From positions 366,298 through 430,297 of the forward strand of contig CAVZBR010000001.1 in assembly GCA_963773585.1 (NCBI GenBank): DNA of 64,000 bases. Direction: 5' to 3'. Origin of the DNA: an uncultured Gammaproteobacteria bacterium (lineage in GTDB: Bacteria; Pseudomonadota; Gammaproteobacteria; JASBUN01). Both the position numbers and the translations under genes were made by a program. The notes under the pieces were generated by a model. The model ran no database searches. It was not told where the DNA came from and saw nothing but the letters and a program-made list of their open reading frames with translations. Of the stretch, positions 36,800 through 50,327 are shown piece after piece. Position 1 is the first letter of the stretch, and each line of letters opens with the position of its first letter.

Positions 36800-38245
36800 A
36801 TGAGTGCGACACCTGAAAATGTCGACAAACTGATCCGAGGCGGATACGAGCACGGGTTCGTGACCAATATCGAATCCGAGGTGGTGCCTCCCGGCCTCAA
36901 CGAAGACGTGGTCCGTCTGATCTCGGAGAAGAAAAACGAGCCCGAGTGGATGCTTGAGTTACGCCTGAAGGCGTTCAAGCACTGGCTGACCATGGCCGAA
37001 CCGGACTGGGCGAAGGTTCAGCATCCGCCGTTGGACTTCCAGTCCATCTCCTATTATGCGGCGCCGAAGAAAAAGAAACAGCTCAAGAGCCTGGACGAGG
37101 TGGATCCGGAATTGCTGGATACCTACAACAAGCTCGGCATCCCGCTGGAAGAGCAGAAAGCACTCGCCGGCGTGGCAGTCGATGCAGTGTTCGATAGCGT
37201 GTCCGTGGCGACCACGTTTCGGAAGCAGCTGGCGGAGGCGGGAGTCATATTCTGTTCCATTTCCGAGGCCGTGCACGACCACCCGGAGTTGGTGAAGCAG
37301 TACCTGGGTTCCGTGGTGCCGCACACCGATAATTTCTTTGCGTCGCTGAATGCGGCGGTGTTTTCCGACGGCACCTTCGTGTACATCCCCAAAGGGGTGC
37401 GCTGTCCGATGGAGCTGTCGACCTATTTCCGCATCAATGCCGCGAATACGGGGCAGTTCGAGCGCACCTTGATCGTCGCCGAGGAAGGCAGTTACGTGAG
37501 TTATCTGGAAGGCTGCACGGCGCCCATGCGCGATGAAAACCAGTTGCACGCCGCAGTCGTCGAACTGGTGGCCATGGACGATGCGCAGATCAAGTATTCC
37601 ACCGTGCAGAACTGGTACCCGGGCGACGCCGAGGGCCGCGGCGGCATTTACAACTTCGTCACCAAACGCGGTGACTGCCGTGGCGCGCGTTCGCACATTT
37701 CCTGGACCCAGGTGGAGACCGGTTCCGCGATCACGTGGAAATATCCGAGCTGCATCCTGCGCGGCGACGATTCCGTGGGCGAGTTCTATTCCGTGGCGGT
37801 GACCAAGGGTCGGCAGCAAGCCGACACCGGTACCAAGATGATTCACATCGGCCGCAACACGCGCTCGACCATCGTCTCCAAAGGTATCTCCGCGCAACGC
37901 GGCACCAACGCTTATCGCGGTCTGGTGCGCATCGCCCAGCGGGCCGAGAACGCGCGCAACCACACGCAATGCGACTCGCTGTTGATCGGCGACCGGTGTG
38001 CGGCGCATACCTACCCGTATATCGAAGTCAAGAACCCGACCGCCAAAGTCGAGCATGAGGCGACCACGTCGAAAGTCGGCGACGACCAGCTGTTCTACTG
38101 TCGCCAGCGCGGCATGTCGGAAGAGGACGCCGTGTCCATGATCGTCAACGGTTTCTGTAAGGAAGTGTTCAAGGAACTGCCGATGGAGTTTGCGGTCGAG
38201 GCGCAGAAACTGCTTTCCGTCAGTCTCGAAGGTGCGGTGGGCTGA
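36800..38245 (+). CDS. sufB: Fe-S cluster assembly protein SufB
   Basis: 481 aa with a typical SufB sequence throughout. Confidence 0.95.
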
Positions 38246-38269
38246 TTGCCGAACATTGATGCTTGAGGA

Positions 38270-39027
<758 letters not shown>

Positions 39028-39031
<4 letters not shown>

Positions 39032-40374
39032 GTTCAGCGGCCGGCAACTCGCCCGCTGCGGTCGAGCGCTACCAGGCGCTGATTCGCGATGCGCATGCCG
39101 GGCTTCCGGCCACCGATCAGGCGTGGCTGGAACAGAAGCGCAACAGCGCCAGCGAAGCGATGGCTCGCGGTGGATTCCCGAGCAAGAAGTCCGAGGCTTG
39201 GCGCTATACCGGGCTCGACTCGTTGCTGCAGACTGATTTCAACGTCAATCTGGAGCCGTTCACGGCGTTGATCCCGTCCGACCTCGACGACGTCACCATT
39301 GAGGGACTGGACGCCTATCGCCTGGTGTTCGCAAACGGCCGCTTGGTCGAGGCCTTGTCGCAGTTGGAAGGTTTGCCGGAGGGCGTACGTGTGCAGAGCC
39401 TGCGCGCGCTACTGGAGTCGGAACCGGAGCAGGCGGCGCAATGGCTGCACTCGGCTGCGAGCGACGAAGGCCATGTGTTCAACAATCTCAATACTGCGTT
39501 GATCAACGACGGTCTGGTGGTCATCATTCCGCGCGACATGCAGCTCGACAAGCCGATCGAAGCGCTGTTTCTCAGTGAAGGGCTCGAGGACGCCATCGTC
39601 GCTCAGCCGCGCAATCTCGTCGTCCTGGAAGAGGGTGCGCGGGCGACTCTGATTGAGCGGCAGGCGAGTTTCGGCCAGTCCATGTATTTCAACAACAGTG
39701 TCAGCGAGTTGTTGCTGGCGCCGCGGGCCGAGCTTACGCACTATCGGCTTCAGGAAGAAAGCACTGGCGCTTTCCACCTGAGCAGTTTGTTTCTGCGCCA
39801 GCAGGCCGGCAGCGTCTACCGTTCGACCAGCATCGCATTGGGCGGCGCGTGGTCGCGGACCGACTTCAATGTCGACTTCCAAGGCGAAGGCGCTAATTGC
39901 GAACTGGACGGACTGTATCTTGCCGGAGACCGGCAGCTGGTGGACTTCCATCTGAATGTCATGCACCACGTTCCCGGCTGCACCAGCCGCGAAAATTTCC
40001 GCGGAATTTTGCACGGCAAGGGACGGGCGGTATTCGACGGACGCATACTCGTCTCACAGGACGCGCAAAAGACCGATGCGCAACTGTCCAACAACAATCT
40101 GCTGTTGACGAGAAGTGCGGAAGTGGACACCAAGCCGCAACTGGAGATTTACGCGGACGACGTCAAGTGCAGCCATGGCACCACCGTCGGACAGCTCGAC
40201 CCGCAGCATCTGTTCTATCTGCGTTCGCGCGGCATCGAGGCGGGCGAGGCGCGCAAAATACTGTGCCTGGGTTTCGCCCGGGAGATTTTCGACAGCTGCG
40301 ACATCGAAGGCGTCCGCGAACGCGCTGAACGTCGTTTGCACGATGCACTTGAACATGTGGCGGTCGATATCTGA
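39028..40374 (+). CDS. sufD: Fe-S cluster assembly protein SufD
   Basis: 448 aa. Overlaps the sufC stop (ATGA). SufB/SufD-family C-terminus. Confidence 0.9.
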
Positions 40375-40758
40375 GTGGCACGGATCATGAGCAGCAGCAA
40401 ACCGGTCAATTTTCAACCCGATCTCAACCGCCCCGATGCGGCCGCGGAAGGCGGCACGCTGAAGGAACGGGTAATCGCGGCGTTGAAAACGGTTTACGAT
40501 CCGGAATTGCCGGTGAACATCTACGACTTGGGTTTGATCTACGAAACCGATGTCGATAATGAAACCGGCCGGGTCGAGATCAAAATGACCCTGACCGCTC
40601 CGGCCTGTCCGGTGGCCGGCACCATGCCCGGCATGGTGGCGCAGACGGTACGCAAAGTGGAAGGTGTGGCTGATGCCGACGTGGAACTGGTATGGGACCC
40701 GCCCTGGACCCAGGACCGGATGTCCGACGAAGCGCGGTTCATGCTGGATATGTTTTGA
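40375..40758 (+). CDS. DUF59/MIP18-family Fe-S assembly protein (SufT-like)
   Basis: ..VIAALKTVYDPELPVNIYDLGLIYE..LTAPACPVAG.. matches DUF59. GTG 40375 lies immediately after the sufD stop (alternative ATG 40386). Confidence 0.8.
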   Translation: MARIMSSSKPVNFQPDLNRPDAAAEGGTLKERVIAALKTVYDPELPVNIYDLGLIYETDVDNETGRVEIKMTLTAPACPVAGTMPGMVAQTVRKVEGVADADVELVWDPPWTQDRMSDEARFMLDMF

Positions 40759-40774
40759 TTGCAGGAGGTTTTGG

Positions 40775-41101
40775 ATGGCCATTCAGTTGACGGAAAACGC
40801 AGCCAACCACATTCAGCGCATGCTGGCAAAGCGCGGCAGCGGTATCGGGCTGCGCCTGGGCACGAAGAAAAGCGGCTGCAGCGGATTTGCCTATCTCGTG
40901 GATTATGCCGACGAGGTGGGTGAACAGGATGTGGTGTTCGAAGAGCACGGCGTCAAGGTGGTGGTCGACCGCGACAGCTTGCCGCGCCTCGACGGCATGG
41001 AACTCGATTACGTCAAGAGCAATATTCTCAACGAGGGTTTCGAATTTCGTAATCCCAACGTCAAGGATTCCTGCGGCTGCGGCGAGTCTTTCAGCGTGTA
41101 G
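40775..41101 (+). CDS. A-type Fe-S carrier (SufA/IscA/ErpA family)
   Basis: 108 aa with C..CGCG C-terminal motif (..KDSCGCGESFSV). Confidence 0.85.
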   Translation: MAIQLTENAANHIQRMLAKRGSGIGLRLGTKKSGCSGFAYLVDYADEVGEQDVVFEEHGVKVVVDRDSLPRLDGMELDYVKSNILNEGFEFRNPNVKDSCGCGESFSV

Positions 41102-41136
41102 TCAGCGCACTGCCTCAGGCTGCTGGAGAAGAACGG

Positions 41137-41571
41137 ATGCGAGAGTTGGACGAAATCGTCGAAACCTTCGACCTGCTGGGCGACTGGGACGCACGGTACC
41201 AGTATCTGGTGGAGTTGGGTGAACAAATGGAGCCCATGCCGGATGAGGAGAAATCCGAACGCAACCGGGTAAAGGGCTGTATGAGCCAGGTGTGGGTGCA
41301 GGCGTTCGTCGATTCCGCCGACCGCACCAAGCTGCGCTACCATGGCGATTGCGATACTGCGGTGATCAAGGGTGTGCTTGCACTGTTGATCAAGATGGCA
41401 TCGGGCAAGAGCATGCGGGACGTGGAAGCGCTCGACGTCGACGAGGTATTCGAGCGGCTCAATCTCGATGAGCATTTGTCGCCCAATCGACACGTTGGCG
41501 TATACGCGATCGTAGAACTGATGAAATCCCAGGCCCGGGAATTAGCGCGAAAACAATCCCAAGTCGCGTGA
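41137..41571 (+). CDS. sufE: SufE-like sulfur acceptor
   Basis: ..VKGCMSQVWV.. conserved Cys loop. 144 aa. Confidence 0.85.
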   Translation: MRELDEIVETFDLLGDWDARYQYLVELGEQMEPMPDEEKSERNRVKGCMSQVWVQAFVDSADRTKLRYHGDCDTAVIKGVLALLIKMASGKSMRDVEALDVDEVFERLNLDEHLSPNRHVGVYAIVELMKSQARELARKQSQVA

Positions 41572-43963: not shown

Positions 43964-46900
43964 TCAATTGCGCCAGCCCCGTTCGTTGAGAAATTCTTTC
44001 AGGATGCGGGCGGTATGGGACTTCGACTTCGACGCCGCAACCTGCTCCGGCGGACCCTGCGCAACGATACGTCCGCCACCGTCGCCGCCCTCCGGTCCCA
44101 GATCGATCAGCCAGTCGGCTTCCGCCAGGACATCGAGGTTGTGTTCGATCACCACTACCGAGTGCCCGGCGTCCACCAGCCGGTGCAGCACCCGTATCAG
44201 CTTTTCCACATCGGCCATGTGCAGGCCCACGGTCGGTTCGTCCAGCACATACAACGTTTGCCGTCCGCTGCGCGGTTGCGCGTCGCCGGCGGCACGGGCA
44301 TCGTCCACCGGACGCGCTTTGGCAAGTTCGGTGACCAGCTTGATGCGTTGCGCTTCACCGCCGGACAAGGTCGGGCTCGGTTGGCCGAGGGTCAGATAGC
44401 CAAGGCCCACGTCCTGCAACAAGCGCAGTGAATGATGAATCGCCGGATGGGCCTGGAAAAAGGTCACCGCGTCGTCCACGTCCATGGCCAGCACTTCGGC
44501 AACGTTCTGGTCCTTATAGGTCACCGTCATGGTTTCGGCATTGAAACGCGCGCCGCCGCACACTTCGCAGGGCACCTTCACATCCGGCAGGAAACTCATT
44601 TCGATTTTCTTGAAGCCCTGACCTTCGCAGCCTTCACAGCGACCGCCGGAAGTGTTGAACGAGAAACGGCCGGGGCCGTAGGCGCGGATGCGCGCTTCCG
44701 GGGTCGCCGCGAACAACTTGCGCACCCGGTCCCAGATGCCGATGTAGGTGGCCGGGCAGGAGCGCGGCGTTTTGCCGATCGGCGTCTGGTCCACTTCCAG
44801 CACCCGATCAATATGTTCCGCACCCAGTAATTCACGACAACCGTGGAGTGCCGCGCGTTTTCGCCGCCTGCGCGCCACCTGTTGCTGCACGTTGTCGCGC
44901 AGCACGTCGCGCACCAGGGAACTTTTGCCGCTGCCGGACACGCCGCTGACGCATACCAGTCGCTGCAGTGGAAACTTGGCGTTGACGTTTTTCAGGTTGT
45001 GGAGGCTGGCGCCCACCACCGAGAGCGTGTCCACTGCGGCGGGTGCGGACTTCGCGCGCAACGAGGTCGGCCGCCGCGGCAGCATTGGATGCTGCAGGGG
45101 CTTGGCGAGGGCGCGGCCGGTGACCGAGTCGCGCGCCTGCATCAATTGGTGCACCGTGCCTTCCGCGACCACCCGACCGCCCTGTACGCCGGCGCCGGGT
45201 CCCAGGTCGACCACATGCTGGGCGCTGCGAATGGTGTCTTCGTCGTGTTCCACCACCACCACCGTATTGCCCTTGTCCTCCAGCTTGCGCAGGGTATCGA
45301 GCAGCATCCGGTTGTCCCGCGGATGCAGGCCAATGGTGGGTTCGTCGAGGATGTAACACACGCCGCGCAAGTTGGAACCCAATTGCGATGCGAGCCGGAT
45401 GCGTTGGGCTTCGCCGCCGGACAAGGTCGGTGCGGCGCGGTCCAGGCCCAGATACCCCAAGCCGACTTCATTCAAAAAACGCAACCGCGCCCGCAATTCC
45501 GCCAGCAAATCCCGGGCGATGTCGGCGTCCCGGCCGCGCAGACGCAGTTTGTCGAAATGTTTTTCCGCGGCAGCCACCGGCAGAGCTGCGTATTCGGCAA
45601 TGGAGCGGTCATGAAAGCGCACCGCAAGAGCTTCCGGCCGCAGGCGCCGGCCTTCGCACTCGGGACAGACATGCTCGGCGCCTTCGTACCAGTCGTTCCA
45701 CCAGATTTCCTCGCCGGTCTGCTCCTCGTCGAAATCCTGCAGTTCCATGCCGGTGCCGAAACACGACGGGCACCAGCCGTGCTTGGAGTTGTAGGAAAAC
45801 ATGCGCGGGTCCAGCTCGTCGAAGCTGGTGCCGCAACTGGGGCAGGCGCGCTCGGTGGAGAAGATGGTTTCCTTGTGTTTGCCTTTGCCCGTGGTCGCCA
45901 CCTGCACTCGGCCATTGCCGTATTCGAGCGCCTTGCGCAGCGCGTCGCGCAGCACTGTTTCATTGCGGCTTTGCACGCGCACTTCGCCCAAGGGCAGATC
46001 GATATTGTGTTCGGCGAAACGATCCAGCCTGGGCCACGGTTCGGTGGGCAGCAGTTCGCCGTCCACACGAAGCTGTTGGAAACCCTTGGCCGCAGCCCAT
46101 TTCGCCAGATCGGTGTAATACCCTTTGCGCGCCACTACCAGGGGTGCATACAACTGCACGGTGCGCTCGCGGAAGTTGCGCTGCAGTTGGGCGACGATCG
46201 CTTCCAGGGTCTGGGGCTCGATGGGTACGTCGCATTCAGGACAGTACTGGGTGCCGAGCTTGACGAACAGCAAGCGCAGGAAGTGATAGATCTCGGTCAT
46301 GGTGGCGACGGTGCTCTTGCGTCCGCCGCGGCTGGTGCGCTGCTCGATGGCGACCGTTGGCGGAATGCCGTACACGGCGTCCACATCGGGCCGCGCCGAC
46401 GGCTGCACGAACTGGCGCGCGTAGGCGTTCAACGACTCCAGATACCGGCGCTGACCTTCGTTGAACAGGATGTCGAAGGCCACGGTGCTTTTGCCGGAAC
46501 CGGAAACACCGGTGATCACCGTGAACTTGTCGCGGGGAATGCGGATGTCGACATTGCGCAGGTTGTGTTCGCGGGCGTGACGAATCTCGATCGCATCGTG
46601 GGCTTTCACTTTCTCGCGTGCGGCCGGTGCCGGCAGCAGTGCCTGCTGGCGCAGCGCGGCATTGTTGGCGGCGTAGTCGCGCAATGCTTTGCCGGTATGG
46701 CTCCCGCTATCGGCGGCGACCTGGGCCGGGGCGCCCGTGCACAAAATACGCCCGCCGCCGTCGCCGCCCTCGGGCCCCAGATCGATGATCCAGTCGCTGG
46801 CGGCGATGACGTCGAGGTTATGTTCGATCACTACCAGCGAGTGGCCTTCGGTCAACAATGCGCGGAAGGCGCGCAGCAAGGTCGCGATATCGTCGAAGTG

Positions 46901-49534
46901 CAATCCGGTGGTGGGCTCGTCGAACAGGAACAGGCGTGGACCGGACAGCGCGTTCTTACCGCTGCTCTTGGCTTTGGCGAGAAACCCGGCCAGCTTCAGA
47001 CGCTGCGCTTCGCCACCGGAAAGGGTCGGTACGGGTTGTCCCAGGCGCAGATAGCGCAGTCCCACCGCGGCCAAAGGCTCCAGGGCCGTCAGCACATCGC
47101 TTTGGCCGGCGAAGAAGTCGACGGCCTCCGACACCGTCATCGCCAGCACGTCGGCGATGGACTTGCCCGGCAGCAGTTTCACTTCCAGCACTTCCGGGCG
47201 ATAGCGCTTACCGTCGCAGTCCGGACAGCGGATGTAGACATCGGACAGGAATTGCATTTCCACGTGTTCGAAACCGGACCCGTTGCAGGTCGGGCAGCGG
47301 CCGGTGCCGGAATTGAAGCTGAACGTGCCTGGCGTGTAGCCCCGTTCCTTCGCCAGCGGCTCGGCGGCGAACAGTTTGCGGATGCCGTCGAAGGCGCCGA
47401 CATAGCTGGCGGGATTGGAGCGCGCCGTCTTGCCGATGGGCGATTGATCCACCAGCACCACGTCGTCGATGTATTGATCGCCGAAGATCGCATCGTGCTC
47501 GCCCGGTTGTTCCACCGGCTTGCCTTTGCGTTTGCGCAAGGCGTTGTAGAGTACGTCCTGGATCAGAGTGGATTTGCCCGAGCCGGACACGCCGGTGATT
47601 GCCACCAGGCGTTGCAGCGGAATCGCGGCATCGACGCTCTGCAGGTTATGTTCCCGCGCGCCCTTGATTTCCAGCCAACGGCTGTCGGCGTCGGGCGGAT
47701 TGGGCTGCGCGTCTTCGGCCACTGTCACATCGCCGCGCAGATAACGTGCGGTCAGCGAGCGCTTGTGGCCCAGCAGTTTCTGCGGCGTGCCGAAGAACAT
47801 CTTTTTGCCACCCCGTTCGCCCGGACCCGGACCGATGTCGAGAATGCGGTCGGCGGCCAGCATCACCTGGGGATCGTGCTCCACCACCAGCAGAGAGTTG
47901 CCGGCATCGCGCAGCTTGTGCATGACGCCGATCACCCGGTGCATGTCGCGCGGGTGCAGGCCGATGGACGGCTCGTCCAGCACGAACAAGGTATTCACCA
48001 GCGAAGTGCCGAGCGCCGTGGTGAGATTGATGCGCTGTACTTCACCGCCGGACAGGGTGCGCGACTGGCGGTCCAGGGTCAGGTAACCAAGGCCGACATC
48101 GGTGAGGTAACGCAGGCGGCTGCGAATCTCGCCCAGCAACAGGTCGGTGGCCTGGTCCAACGGTTGGGGCAAGTGCAGTTGATCGAACAATGCGCGGCAG
48201 CGATCCAGCGGCAGCAGCATCACATCGTGGATGGTCAGCCCGGGCAGGGCAGTGAAGGTCGCCTGATCCAGCTGCATGCGCGGCGGTCGGAAACGCTGCG
48301 TTTCGGGCAGGGCCTGCAAGGCATCGTTGCGGCTGCCCAGGCGCCACCACAAGGCTTCGTCCTTGAGCCGTGCGCCTTCGCAGTCGGGACAACGGTCGTA
48401 GGAGCGGTACTTGGATAGCAGCACGCGGATGTGCATCTTGTAGCTCTTGGATTCGAGCCAGTCGAAGAAGCGGCGCACGCCATACCAGACTTTTTCGTCC
48501 CAACCGCCGTCGCCTTCGATCACCCAGCGCCGTTGGCTTTCGTTCAGCTTGCGCCATGGCACGTCGGTGGGGATGCCGCGCTTGCGCGCATAGCGCATCA
48601 GATCGCCTTGCGACTCGATGTAGCTGTCGGTCTGGAACGGCTTCACCGCGCCTTCGGCCAGAGTCTTGCTCGGATCCGGGATCACCAGGTCGTAGTCGAT
48701 GCCCATGACCCGGCCGAAGCCGCGGCAGGTGTCGCACGCGCCCATCGGAGAATTGAACGAGAACAGATTGGGCAGCGGTTCGCGGTATTCGATGTCGCAT
48801 TCGGCGCAGTGCAGATGCGAAGAGAAACGCCATTGGCGTTTCGGCGCGCGTTGGTCATCGAGTTCGATGACACGCACGTGGCCGTCGCCGGTCTTCAGGG
48901 CGATCTCCAACGCTTCAGTGATGCGCGGGCGATTGTCATCGCTGAGGCGCAGCCGGTCCTGCACCACTTCCAGGGTGCCTTCGTGCTCGCTGTGAATGCG
49001 GGTGTAGCCTTGCTTTTCCAGCAACCTGCGTACTTCTTCGCTGCTGAAGTTGTGGGGCACCGACACCGGAAACACGATCAACGCCCGCGCGCCGGATTCG
49101 GCACGCTGCAACAGCGTCTGCAAGATGCTCTGCGCATCGTCCCGACGCACCGGCTCGCCGCAGCCGCGACAGTGCAGGGCGGCGGCGCGAGCGAACAGCA
49201 GTTTCAGATGATCGTTGAGCTCGGTCATGGTGCCGACCGTGGAGCGCGAGGTGCGCACGGGATTGGTCTGATCGATGGCGATGGCGGGCGGGATGCCGTC
49301 GATGCGATCCACCTGGGGCTTGTCCATTCGATCCAGGAACTGGCGCGCATAGGGCGAGAACGTTTCGACGTAGCGGCGCTGGCCCTCGGCATAGACTGTG
49401 TCGAACGCCAGGGACGACTTGCCGGAACCGGACACGCCGGTCACGACGATCAGTTCGTACAGCGGTAATTTCAGGGACAGGTCCTGCAGATTGTTCTGCC
49501 GGGCGCCCTCCACCAATATGCGGTCGTTGGCCAT
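43964..49534 (-). CDS. tandem-duplicated UvrA-like ABC ATPase (two complete UvrA units fused, four ABC cassettes)
   Basis: Single uninterrupted 1912-aa ORF (43964..49702). Likely start MANDRILVEGARQNNLQDL at 49534. Four Walker A GVSGSGKSS/T sites, each followed by an ABC signature LSGGE (first unit ..TLSGGEVQR.. / ..TLSGGEAQR..; second unit ..TLSGGEAQRI.. twice). UvrA Zn-module cysteine pairs are present in both halves. Confidence 0.85.
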   Translation of the reverse strand: MANDRILVEGARQNNLQDLSLKLPLYELIVVTGVSGSGKSSLAFDTVYAEGQRRYVETFSPYARQFLDRMDKPQVDRIDGIPPAIAIDQTNPVRTSRSTVGTMTELNDHLKLLFARAAALHCRGCGEPVRRDDAQSILQTLLQRAESGARALIVFPVSVPHNFSSEEVRRLLEKQGYTRIHSEHEGTLEVVQDRLRLSDDNRPRITEALEIALKTGDGHVRVIELDDQRAPKRQWRFSSHLHCAECDIEYREPLPNLFSFNSPMGACDTCRGFGRVMGIDYDLVIPDPSKTLAEGAVKPFQTDSYIESQGDLMRYARKRGIPTDVPWRKLNESQRRWVIEGDGGWDEKVWYGVRRFFDWLESKSYKMHIRVLLSKYRSYDRCPDCEGARLKDEALWWRLGSRNDALQALPETQRFRPPRMQLDQATFTALPGLTIHDVMLLPLDRCRALFDQLHLPQPLDQATDLLLGEIRSRLRYLTDVGLGYLTLDRQSRTLSGGEVQRINLTTALGTSLVNTLFVLDEPSIGLHPRDMHRVIGVMHKLRDAGNSLLVVEHDPQVMLAADRILDIGPGPGERGGKKMFFGTPQKLLGHKRSLTARYLRGDVTVAEDAQPNPPDADSRWLEIKGAREHNLQSVDAAIPLQRLVAITGVSGSGKSTLIQDVLYNALRKRKGKPVEQPGEHDAIFGDQYIDDVVLVDQSPIGKTARSNPASYVGAFDGIRKLFAAEPLAKERGYTPGTFSFNSGTGRCPTCNGSGFEHVEMQFLSDVYIRCPDCDGKRYRPEVLEVKLLPGKSIADVLAMTVSEAVDFFAGQSDVLTALEPLAAVGLRYLRLGQPVPTLSGGEAQRLKLAGFLAKAKSSGKNALSGPRLFLFDEPTTGLHFDDIATLLRAFRALLTEGHSLVVIEHNLDVIAASDWIIDLGPEGGDGGGRILCTGAPAQVAADSGSHTGKALRDYAANNAALRQQALLPAPAAREKVKAHDAIEIRHAREHNLRNVDIRIPRDKFTVITGVSGSGKSTVAFDILFNEGQRRYLESLNAYARQFVQPSARPDVDAVYGIPPTVAIEQRTSRGGRKSTVATMTEIYHFLRLLFVKLGTQYCPECDVPIEPQTLEAIVAQLQRNFRERTVQLYAPLVVARKGYYTDLAKWAAAKGFQQLRVDGELLPTEPWPRLDRFAEHNIDLPLGEVRVQSRNETVLRDALRKALEYGNGRVQVATTGKGKHKETIFSTERACPSCGTSFDELDPRMFSYNSKHGWCPSCFGTGMELQDFDEEQTGEEIWWNDWYEGAEHVCPECEGRRLRPEALAVRFHDRSIAEYAALPVAAAEKHFDKLRLRGRDADIARDLLAELRARLRFLNEVGLGYLGLDRAAPTLSGGEAQRIRLASQLGSNLRGVCYILDEPTIGLHPRDNRMLLDTLRKLEDKGNTVVVVEHDEDTIRSAQHVVDLGPGAGVQGGRVVAEGTVHQLMQARDSVTGRALAKPLQHPMLPRRPTSLRAKSAPAAVDTLSVVGASLHNLKNVNAKFPLQRLVCVSGVSGSGKSSLVRDVLRDNVQQQVARRRRKRAALHGCRELLGAEHIDRVLEVDQTPIGKTPRSCPATYIGIWDRVRKLFAATPEARIRAYGPGRFSFNTSGGRCEGCEGQGFKKIEMSFLPDVKVPCEVCGGARFNAETMTVTYKDQNVAEVLAMDVDDAVTFFQAHPAIHHSLRLLQDVGLGYLTLGQPSPTLSGGEAQRIKLVTELAKARPVDDARAAGDAQPRSGRQTLYVLDEPTVGLHMADVEKLIRVLHRLVDAGHSVVVIEHNLDVLAEADWLIDLGPEGGDGGGRIVAQGPPEQVAASKSKSHTARILKEFLNERGWRN

Positions 49535-49544
49535 AGGAACCGTA

Positions 49545-49562
49545 CGCGACCCGGTCGGGTCG
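49545..49562. promoter_or_regulatory. GC-rich palindrome GCGACCCG-GT-CGGGTCGC in the 5' leader of the uvrA-like gene
   Basis: 8-bp perfect arms lying 11-28 nt upstream of the proposed start codon (minus-strand gene). Confidence 0.35.
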
Positions 49563-49623
49563 CGATCAAAGAGATTGGCTACAGGAAGCCGGCATTTTAC
49601 CCTAAGCCGCCCTTTGGTTTCTG

Positions 49624-49692
49624 CCGCGGGCGCGGTATGGATATCATGGGCGGTGGCGCCGGCCCGGGGATATTCCCGCGGGCGCGGTATGG
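49624..49692. repeat. two direct copies of CCGCGGGCGCGGTATGG, 52 bp apart, upstream of the uvrA-like gene
   Basis: Exact 17-nt repeat at 49624-49640 and 49676-49692, each followed by G(G/T)ATAT-like sequence. Confidence 0.4.
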
Positions 49693-49715
49693 TCGAAGCC
49701 AACGAGAGGATTTGT

Positions 49716-49931
49716 ATGCGCTATCGTATTGATCAGGCGGCCCAACAGGCTGCTGGTACCAGCACCGAGTCGTTCGTTGTCGGATCGGTCTTTCTGGGTC
49801 TGATCATCGGCGTCATACTGGTGTTGGTAGGTATGCGTGGCCGACAATACTGGATCGCTGTTTGGGGCGGTTCACTGGTGGTCGCCAGCGTTTTGTACCT
49901 GGGGGCCGCCGCATTGGGACTTACTGGCTGA
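49716..49931 (+). CDS. small two-TM membrane protein
   Basis: GAGAGGA RBS then ATG 49716. 71 aa (MRYRIDQAAQQAAGTSTESFVVGSVFLGLIIGVILVLVGMRGRQYWIAVWGGSLVVASVLYLGAAALGLTG). Confidence 0.4.
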   Translation: MRYRIDQAAQQAAGTSTESFVVGSVFLGLIIGVILVLVGMRGRQYWIAVWGGSLVVASVLYLGAAALGLTG

Positions 49932-49946: not shown

Positions 49947-50327
49947 ATGGTCGATCAACTCGCGTGTTGGAAATGCGGCAATACGCTGGCGTTCCTGTCC
50001 TTGGCGCTGCGCGACGAATGTCCCGCCTGCGCCGCCGAACTGCACGTATGCCGCATGTGCCGGTTCTACGATCCCCGAGTCTCGCAGGCGTGCACCGAGC
50101 CGGTTGCCGAACCGGTGCTGGACAAGGAGCGGGCGAACTTTTGCGGCTACTTTGAACCGACCCCGAATGCCTTCAGGCCGGAGGACCAAGCGGCATTGCG
50201 CGCCCGGCGGGAACTCGAGGCGTTGTTCGGTCCTGCATCCGGCGGAGACTCGAGCCTGGCCAACACTTCGGACAGCGCCCGGGAGGCACTCGACAGCTTG
50301 TTCGGCGCCCCCGGTTCCAAGCCGTGA
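49947..50327 (+). CDS. small Cys-rich (zinc-ribbon-like) protein
   Basis: 126 aa with CWKC..CPAC..CRMC..C cysteine pairs. Confidence 0.45.
   Translation: MVDQLACWKCGNTLAFLSLALRDECPACAAELHVCRMCRFYDPRVSQACTEPVAEPVLDKERANFCGYFEPTPNAFRPEDQAALRARRELEALFGPASGGDSSLANTSDSAREALDSLFGAPGSKP

Follow-up and report, generated by a model that had tools for sequence, protein, structure and literature searches.

We describe a gene on the minus strand of a 64,000-nucleotide stretch of DNA from an uncultured gammaproteobacterium (JASBUN01; assembly GCA_963773585.1, contig CAVZBR010000001.1, positions 366,298 to 430,297), a stretch that we call the window throughout. The gene encodes two UvrA units fused into one polypeptide, with the ATPase sites of both units intact. 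What makes this fused UvrA noteworthy is that the two units have lost different parts—and that the parts still present match one complete UvrB-loading site as found in the canonical dimer. On balance, and with modest confidence, we favour the reading that the protein is an intramolecular pseudo-dimer, which would carry a single intact UvrB-loading site and act as a damage sensor in DNA repair.

Architecture of the fused protein

The open reading frame (ORF) found mechanically spans positions 43964..49702 on the minus strand, opens at a TTG (49702) and holds 1,912 codons. The true start is probably the ATG at 49534, leaving the stretch upstream to the TTG untranslated, because gene calling chose the same start in L083, a relative with more than 90% identity, and the N-termini of the family align there. 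A model had earlier read this DNA from its letters and ORF translations—we refer to this as the sequence-only reading—and gave a length of 1,857 amino acids (aa); translation from the ATG at 49534 gives 1,856 aa. There is no internal stop, and the continuous frame is common to 71 full-length orthologues from several phyla, so that no stop or frameshift divides the locus into two ordinary genes. These 71 relatives make up the family alignment to which we refer below.

A motif scan places the Walker A motif (GVSGSGKS) at aa 33, 648, 1009 and 1531, and the LSGGE signature at aa 494, 838, 1371 and 1723. Together with four Walker B motifs and four H-loops, these amount to two ABC cassettes in each unit, which is the arrangement that defines the UvrA superfamily. 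The Walker A Lys, the Walker B Glu and the H-loop His are invariant at all four sites in 71 of 71 relatives. Twelve CxxC motifs correspond to three zinc (Zn) modules per unit, and every position that is a Zn ligand in Escherichia coli UvrA is a Cys in both modules; across the family Zn2 and Zn3 show no variation, and Zn1 has been lost in roughly 10–14 of the 71 relatives. Neither half thus lacks its catalytic motifs. The sequence-only reading was right to describe two Walker A sites and Zn cysteines in each unit, but it counted one LSGGE signature per unit where there are two.

The earlier proposal of one polypeptide that joins two UvrA units, with all four ABC sites intact, is supported, and profile scores place both units in the UvrA superfamily. 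Against TIGR00630 (cutoff 729.8 bits) the whole protein scores 2001.8 bits, module 1 (the N-terminal unit) 969.2 and module 2 (the C-terminal unit) 1039.8, each of them above the cutoff. Against NF001503, the stricter equivalog profile for canonical class I UvrA (cutoff 1147 bits), the whole protein scores 2064.7 bits and the separate units 984.9 (module 1) and 1087.5 (module 2); the fused protein passes this profile because the scores of its two units add up, neither unit passing alone.

The two modules share 32–43% identity with each other, a distance which argues for an old fusion and against both an assembly artefact and a recent duplication. They are joined by a linker of about 26 aa that is poorly conserved and differs in length between family members; measured over a wider span, from the end of the SHTG motif in module 1 to the beginning of the AREHNL motif in module 2, the connection takes 33–82 aa in 46 relatives.

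Complementary losses in the two modules

In E. coli UvrA, R216 and E222 form the UvrB interaction surface, R712, R722, R724 and R730 bind DNA, and residues 290–400 make up the insertion domain, whose deletion impairs damage discrimination and affects global nucleotide excision repair (NER) more than transcription-coupled repair (PMC3025350). When the halves of the fused protein are aligned to E. coli UvrA, as the sequence-only reading had suggested doing, each shows 44–49% identity; both carry the fold of the UvrB-binding domain, and the insertion domain is found in module 1 only.

Over its entire length, insertion domain included, module 1 can be aligned with B. stearothermophilus UvrA (2r6f). 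Its AlphaFold2 (AF2) model has a pLDDT (predicted local distance difference test) of 84.6 and finds 3uwx_A as its top fold match in Foldseek, with a TMq of 0.85. The insertion domain is the only one in the fused protein, and its flanking cysteines, C270 and C382, lie 112 aa apart, compared with 126 in E. coli. The UvrB-binding domain is also about 15 aa shorter than its E. coli counterpart; it is modelled at a pLDDT of ~90–95, and alignment maps R204 and E210 onto E. coli R216 and E222. R204 is present in 71 of the 71 aligned sequences, and position 210 holds Glu in 63 of them and Asp in 7; in alignments, R216 and E222 are conserved in the UvrAs of B. stearothermophilus, M. tuberculosis and C. 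thermocellum as well. The signature-II arginines of module 1 have fared less evenly: the R712 and R724 positions are kept, the R730 position is Thr in 57 of 71 sequences, and the R722 position varies. Relative to canonical UvrA, module 1 carries an extra insert of ~31 aa after Zn2.

Module 2 shows a different pattern. It aligns to UvrA 9gxk at positions 24–305 and 411–960, skipping the insertion domain, and the corresponding cysteines (C1258 and C1290) are separated by 32 aa, compared with the 126 of E. coli. The AF2 model (pLDDT 81.4) has class I UvrAs as its top Foldseek matches, 2r6f_A being the best. In its UvrB-binding domain the equivalents of R216 and E222 are V1194 and R1200, both of which vary in the family. 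All four of the tested signature-II arginine equivalents (R712/R722/R724/R730) are kept in module 2; across the family the R712 and R730 positions are invariant, the R722 position is Arg in 58 sequences and Lys in 12, and the R724 position is Arg in 66 of 71. The earlier description of two complete units therefore stands as to their number but not as to their completeness—unit 2 lacks an insertion domain of ~105 aa, and the UvrB-binding domain of unit 1 is the shortened one described above.

These surviving parts suggest how the protein may work. Most likely the modules fold back on each other through the flexible linker and so recreate the head-to-head UvrA2 dimer, all four ATPase sites being active; the sequence-only reading had offered an intramolecular "dimer" as one possibility, and we infer that it is the most plausible arrangement. 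Module 1 would bring the sole insertion (DNA-clamping) domain and the sole UvrB-binding domain with the UvrB/Mfd contact residues, and module 2 would bring the better-conserved signature-II DNA-binding surface. UvrB is known to contact the binding domain of one protomer and the signature-II region of the other (PMC12796330); in the fused protein, the contact helix of module 1 and signature-II of module 2 would make up one composite UvrB-loading site, and the degenerate elements would be what is left of the other, decayed site. The fused UvrA would then serve as a damage sensor in NER that recruits one UvrB (or Mfd) per molecule. Canonical UvrA2 is itself asymmetric, with a recognition insertion domain (recognition-ID) and a support-ID, and forms A2B1 and then A2B2 complexes (PMC11985968)—a hard-wired asymmetric version is plausible for that reason.

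The features of the gene and of its upstream region are collected in Table 1.

Table 1. Positions in the window of the fused uvrA, its modules and domains, and elements upstream of it (strand given as "." where none applies).
Feature	Position	Strand	Remarks
Fused uvrA coding sequence	43964..49534	-	1,856 aa plus stop; start as in L083; TIGR00630 2001.8 bits
Module 1 (aa 1-953)	46676..49534	-	Class-I-like unit; insertion domain, shortened UvrB-binding domain, two ATPase sites, Zn1-Zn3
Walker A motif 1 (aa 33-40)	49415..49438	-	Motif scan
UvrB-binding-like domain, module 1 (aa 126-242)	48809..49159	-	Partial PF17760 match, aa 176-224, 34 bits
Insertion (DNA-binding) domain, module 1 (aa 271-381)	48392..48724	-	PF17755, aa 280-349, 51 bits
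Walker A motifs 2-4	47570-47593, 46487-46510, 44921-44944	-	Motif scan
Inter-module linker (aa 954-979)	46598..46675	-	Mean column conservation 0.28
Module 2 (aa 980-1856)	43967..46597	-	Full-length UvrB-binding fold, no insertion domain, two ATPase sites, Zn1-Zn3
UvrB-binding-domain fold, module 2 (aa 1102-1230)	45845..46231	-	Full-length PF17760 match, 89 bits
Insertion-domain remnant, module 2 (aa 1259-1289, between Zn2 Cys pairs)	45668..45760	-	Alignment
Divergent intergenic region, uvrA (-) / 71-aa membrane ORF (+)	49535..49715	.	Repeats, TAAAAT, hairpin
17-nt exact direct repeat CCGCGGGCGCGGTATGG	49624-49640, 49676-49692	.	Found only at these two upstream sites
8-bp GC hairpin	49545-49564	.	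Shuffle test not significant
Conserved TAAAAT	49594-49599	.	~60 nt upstream of the ATG

A first alternative concerns the class of UvrA to which the protein belongs. Class II UvrAs (D. radiodurans UvrA2, 2VF7; DrrC; Ecm16, 7SH1) resemble the fused protein in having an ABC ATPase core plus an insertion domain (here that of module 1), and in standing as paralogues beside a canonical UvrA in some genomes. The fused protein could accordingly be a UvrB-independent DNA-binding ATPase of this type, one that scans DNA and removes or tolerates intercalators or other DNA-bound toxins without excision, and Ecm16 offers a precedent, since it gives echinomycin resistance without UvrA, UvrB, UvrC or UvrD (PMC9328131). 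The loss of the R216/E222 contacts in module 2 and the truncated UvrB-binding domain of module 1 point the same way, and the co-occurrence with canonical uvrA in Ralstonia, where the fused gene is named uvrA_2, suggests a non-redundant role.

We nevertheless regard a class II-like function as unlikely. Class II is defined by the absence of the UvrB-binding domain and Zn1 (PMC9328131), and both modules have them: alignment and the AF2 models show a folded domain of 118–130 aa between intact Zn1 Cys pairs in each, with a pLDDT of ~90 over these regions and a matching order of secondary-structure elements. R204 and E210 are nearly invariant. Sequence similarity to class II is lower too, as is fold similarity: in Foldseek the class I structures 3UWX_A and 2R6F_A rank first (TMq 0.84–0.85) and class II structures reach a TMq of 0.59–0.67. 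The fused UvrA resembles class I UvrAs such as those of E. coli and B. stearothermophilus (2R6F, 3UWX) in having two ABC cassettes, three Zn modules and a UvrB-binding fold per module. The folded UvrB-binding domains and the conserved R204 and E210 disfavour the suggestion, made in the sequence-only reading, of action independently of UvrB.

The fused UvrA is no textbook class I protein either. Class I UvrA is a homodimer of ~940–1000-aa chains that loads UvrB in UvrABC repair, each protomer with its insertion domain, whereas the fused form has two modules in one 1,856-aa chain and one insertion domain in all, present in module 1 and absent from module 2. The UvrB contact domain gives a divided answer as well—module 1 keeps the contact residues and matches PF17760 weakly and in part (34 bits), whereas module 2 matches the profile in full (89 bits) and has lost the residues, so that one UvrB-binding domain with R216/E222 equivalents remains per fused protein.

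Relatives and genomic setting

The sequence-only reading had considered such double UvrAs rare. Our searches contradict this. A scan of one genome per species matched at least 600 stretches, among which at least 598 relatives are encoded; in the best 80 of these loci, which were retained for analysis, the match covers aa ~1–1850 at 57–71% identity. These 80 include loci from Bordetella, Achromobacter, Pandoraea, Acidovorax, Rubrivivax, Thiomonas and Aromatoleum, and extend to Steroidobacteraceae, Ectothiorhodospiraceae, Nitrospirota, Thermodesulfobacteriota, Verrucomicrobiia and Spirochaetaceae. Acidovorax sp. GW101-3H11 has an orthologue (L071). In a protein search the top 120 matches are all 1,823–2,021 aa long, share 67–75% identity with the query and bear the name "excinuclease ABC subunit A/UvrA"; their hosts are Gammaproteobacteria, Thiohalobacter, Thiogranum, Manganitrophus, Geobacter metallireducens and a metagenome-assembled genome (MAG) of Bacteroidota. 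A plasmid collection yielded 143 plasmid or chromid records that carry the fused gene at a coverage of at least 80%, namely the megaplasmid of Ralstonia solanacearum together with secondary replicons from Burkholderia, Cupriavidus, Caballeronia and Mycetohabitans; the Burkholderia copies lie on accessory replicons of 0.55–1.4 Mb.

Among these records are the closest known counterparts by name. Several Ralstonia records call the gene uvrA_2, and one record annotated by RAST calls it "Excinuclease ABC subunit A, dimeric form". Like the fused UvrA here, this SEED/RAST dimeric form packs two units into one ORF, and the orthology extends along the whole protein (59.6% identity over aa 1–1855 to the Ralstonia megaplasmid genes by tblastn); the Ralstonia homologue likewise stands alone as a gene. 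The homologues of Burkholderia, Cupriavidus, Caballeronia, Mycetohabitans and Ralstonia as a group share ~57–60% identity over aa 1–1850. The host lineage differs from the Ralstonia type, the nearest species representatives being Manganitrophaceae and gammaproteobacterial MAGs at 68–71% identity. Since the name uvrA_2 implies a uvrA_1 in the same genomes, the fused protein would, in at least some lineages, work beside a canonical uvrA. The genome paper for C. metallidurans CH34 lists uvrA1 on chromosome 1, uvrA2 on chromosome 2, a single uvrB and a single uvrC.

Fused UvrAs come in several architectures. We searched protein clusters with module 2 as query and classified the best 150 representatives at 50% identity (P0133–P0282); 122 of these 150 are two-module UvrAs of at least 1,500 aa. 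By approximate pairwise mapping, on which all the architecture calls for these representatives are based, ~45 clusters carry the insertion domain in the first module only, the fused UvrA of the window among them. Others carry it in both modules, or reverse the order and place the domain-less module first (P0157, P0166, P0222), and there are double class-II-like forms of ~1,600 aa that lack UvrB-binding domains. In a rough neighbour-joining tree without support values, module-1-type and module-2-type units fall into separate clades. As far as such a tree can, it also suggests independent losses of one insertion domain in several fused lineages, whichever order the modules take. If those independent losses hold, one insertion domain per dimer would be sufficient for function.

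One metagenomic contig shows the units apart. On L085:1-2991 (JGI metagenome 3300017929), a stand-alone module-2-type UvrA of 944 aa (P0253), without an insertion domain and 57% identical to module 2, begins 2 nt past the stop codon of the preceding ORF, which has at its end the UvrA C-terminal motif ERSHTGHFLRELV. Two explanations offer themselves: a fused protein split over two genes, or a nonsense mutation in the linker. Fusions in both module orders and a split two-gene version would fit a functional unit made of two modules.

The breadth of the family bears on a second alternative, namely that the fused protein is the housekeeping UvrA of its organism, possibly the only one, and that its asymmetry reflects neutral decay of parts made redundant by fusion and no specialised mechanism. 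Several observations are in keeping with this. Conservation across phyla is high (57–75% identity), the leaf-nodule symbiont Candidatus Burkholderia brachyanthoides (L068) retains the fused gene, and the gene of the window stands alone among housekeeping genes (Suf, EF-P, transporters). The apparent repeated, independent loss of an insertion domain would be expected if selection on a redundant copy had been relaxed. NCBIfam, moreover, curates the double-length UvrA of chlamydiae as an equivalog (NF001885, also PRK00635) with a profile of 1,809 positions, so that double length as such is shared with the fused UvrA. To our knowledge, the double-length form is the sole UvrA of Chlamydia.

The fused UvrA is not that equivalog. 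It scores 1195.3 bits against the NF001885 cutoff of 3054, its best stretch running across the module junction (aa 424–1133 to profile positions 410–1093), and none of five divergent double-length representatives reaches the cutoff. In Ralstonia and Burkholderia the gene is evidently a paralogue, given the name uvrA_2 on the Ralstonia megaplasmid and the location on accessory replicons in Burkholderia. We therefore give the housekeeping explanation a minor share of the probability, well below that of the asymmetric pseudo-dimer.

In the window, the neighbours of the fused uvrA on one side are genes for an FAD oxidoreductase, an EcsC-family protein and Suf proteins, and on the other a 71-aa membrane ORF, a 126-aa Cys-rich ORF, an ABC-2 transporter and EF-P. 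In a comparison of 81 loci no family of neighbours proved to be conserved; the commonest occurs in 8 of them, and the gene has no operon partner. There is no antibiotic biosynthetic cluster or resistance context, which, together with the absence of a conserved neighbourhood, counts further against a class II-like role and leaves the drug or toxin resistance suggested in the sequence-only reading without a genomic basis.

The same neighbourhood bears on a third alternative, an anti-phage defence ATPase of the MADS type. The fused protein does match the PADLOC profiles mad3 (493.5 bits) and mad8 (210.5 bits). As a control, however, canonical E. coli UvrA reaches 341.9 bits on mad3 and exceeds both module 1 (220.6) and module 2 (280.5), and these matches are thus best read as generic UvrA homology; neither a methyltransferase nor any other MADS gene lies nearby. 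We rejected a MADS identity on the strength of this control, and hold a defence role to be extremely improbable. As an observation of wider use, the mad3 and mad8 profiles give strong matches to any UvrA and, taken alone, can flag ordinary uvrA genes as defence components.

Upstream of the gene, the GC palindrome and the exact direct repeats that the sequence-only reading described are both present (Table 1), but they make a weak case for the dedicated regulation that it drew from them. In the closest relative the 17-nt repeat is mismatched at 1 position in its proximal copy and at 4 in its distal copy, and the leader hairpin does not differ significantly from shuffled sequences (z = -1.96 in the window, +0.55 in the relative). 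A dispersed repeat element was considered and ruled out, the 17-mer being confined to its two upstream sites. The upstream region contains no match to the sigma-70 consensus. As had been reported, it has no SOS box: a scan with six classes of LexA-type motif (gamma/beta, Gram-positive, alpha, delta, Xanthomonas and cyanobacterial) at no more than 1 mismatch returned only alpha-type matches, which occur at chance level and overlap the start codon or coding sequence.

Some further features of the locus deserve a record. The divergent small genes at 49716-49931 (+) and 49947-50327 (+), of which the first encodes the 71-aa predicted membrane protein and the second the 126-aa Cys-rich protein with several CxxC pairs, have no Pfam or PADLOC match; both are called and conserved in L083. 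A Suf cluster (SufB, SufC and SufD by Pfam) lies at 36800-41500, a few kb downstream of uvrA; in L083, whose locus is syntenic with the window, the cluster (L083:19035-23805) adds SufE, Fe-S_biosyn (PF01521) and FeS_assembly_P. Two adjacent small proteins of 103 and 108 aa, with weak or faint EF-hand matches in Pfam, are encoded upstream of EF-P at L083:5873-6739. Antisense to uvrA, an ORF of 1,191 aa runs from 44843 to 48418 (+); comparable ORFs occur in just 6 of 81 related loci, and GC-rich codon usage is for this reason the most likely origin of this ORF, which would then be no gene. The window as a whole contains no tRNA genes and no Rfam families at gathering thresholds.

Weight of the evidence and significance

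Several points weigh against a single UvrB-loading site, or against a repair role beside a canonical UvrA, and must be considered together. The assignment of UvrB binding to module 1 rests on two contact residues traced by sequence alignment. Of the two UvrB-binding domains, that of module 2 has the more strongly conserved N-terminal block—conservation so strong that the module 2 domain is probably still doing something. This domain may have kept an ability to bind UvrB or some other partner, and the idea of a single site would then be weakened. No uvrB, uvrC or second uvrA is found in the 64-kb window, and uvrB adjoins the fused gene in just one of 85 sources. That source, where the linkage itself speaks for our preferred reading, is a Nitrospirota MAG (JBMOMC010000001.1; L002:7065-15608), in which uvrB precedes the fused uvrA by ~0.8 kb on the same strand and encodes a product with 59% identity to E. 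coli UvrB. The uvrA2 of C. metallidurans CH34 may not be of the double-length type. Lastly, a full-text literature search found no experimental study of a double-length or fused UvrA, which is in line with the earlier statement that these proteins have no established role.

With these points taken into account, the pseudo-dimer with one intact loading site remains the reading that we prefer. The fused uvrA is in any case no rare oddity, for its family is known and very widespread, and its members already receive the name UvrA from annotation pipelines; as far as the literature search shows, this kind of protein is experimentally uncharacterised. A bolder extension, which we consider possible but put forward tentatively, is that fused UvrAs are a natural, hard-wired form of the transient asymmetry of canonical UvrA2, and that the protein described here, with exactly one functional UvrB-loading site and one clamping insertion domain, would load one UvrB per lesion.

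What the complementary decay of the two units predicts is an asymmetric UvrA in a single chain, equipped with one site for loading UvrB. Should one insertion domain per dimer be sufficient for function, this would bear on the debate over A2B1 and A2B2 complexes, and mechanistic studies would have an asymmetric UvrA ready to hand. A natural protein of this kind could help to test what number of UvrB molecules, and of insertion domains, is needed by a damage sensor, and could help to show why the fused form is kept beside a canonical uvrA in many bacteria.

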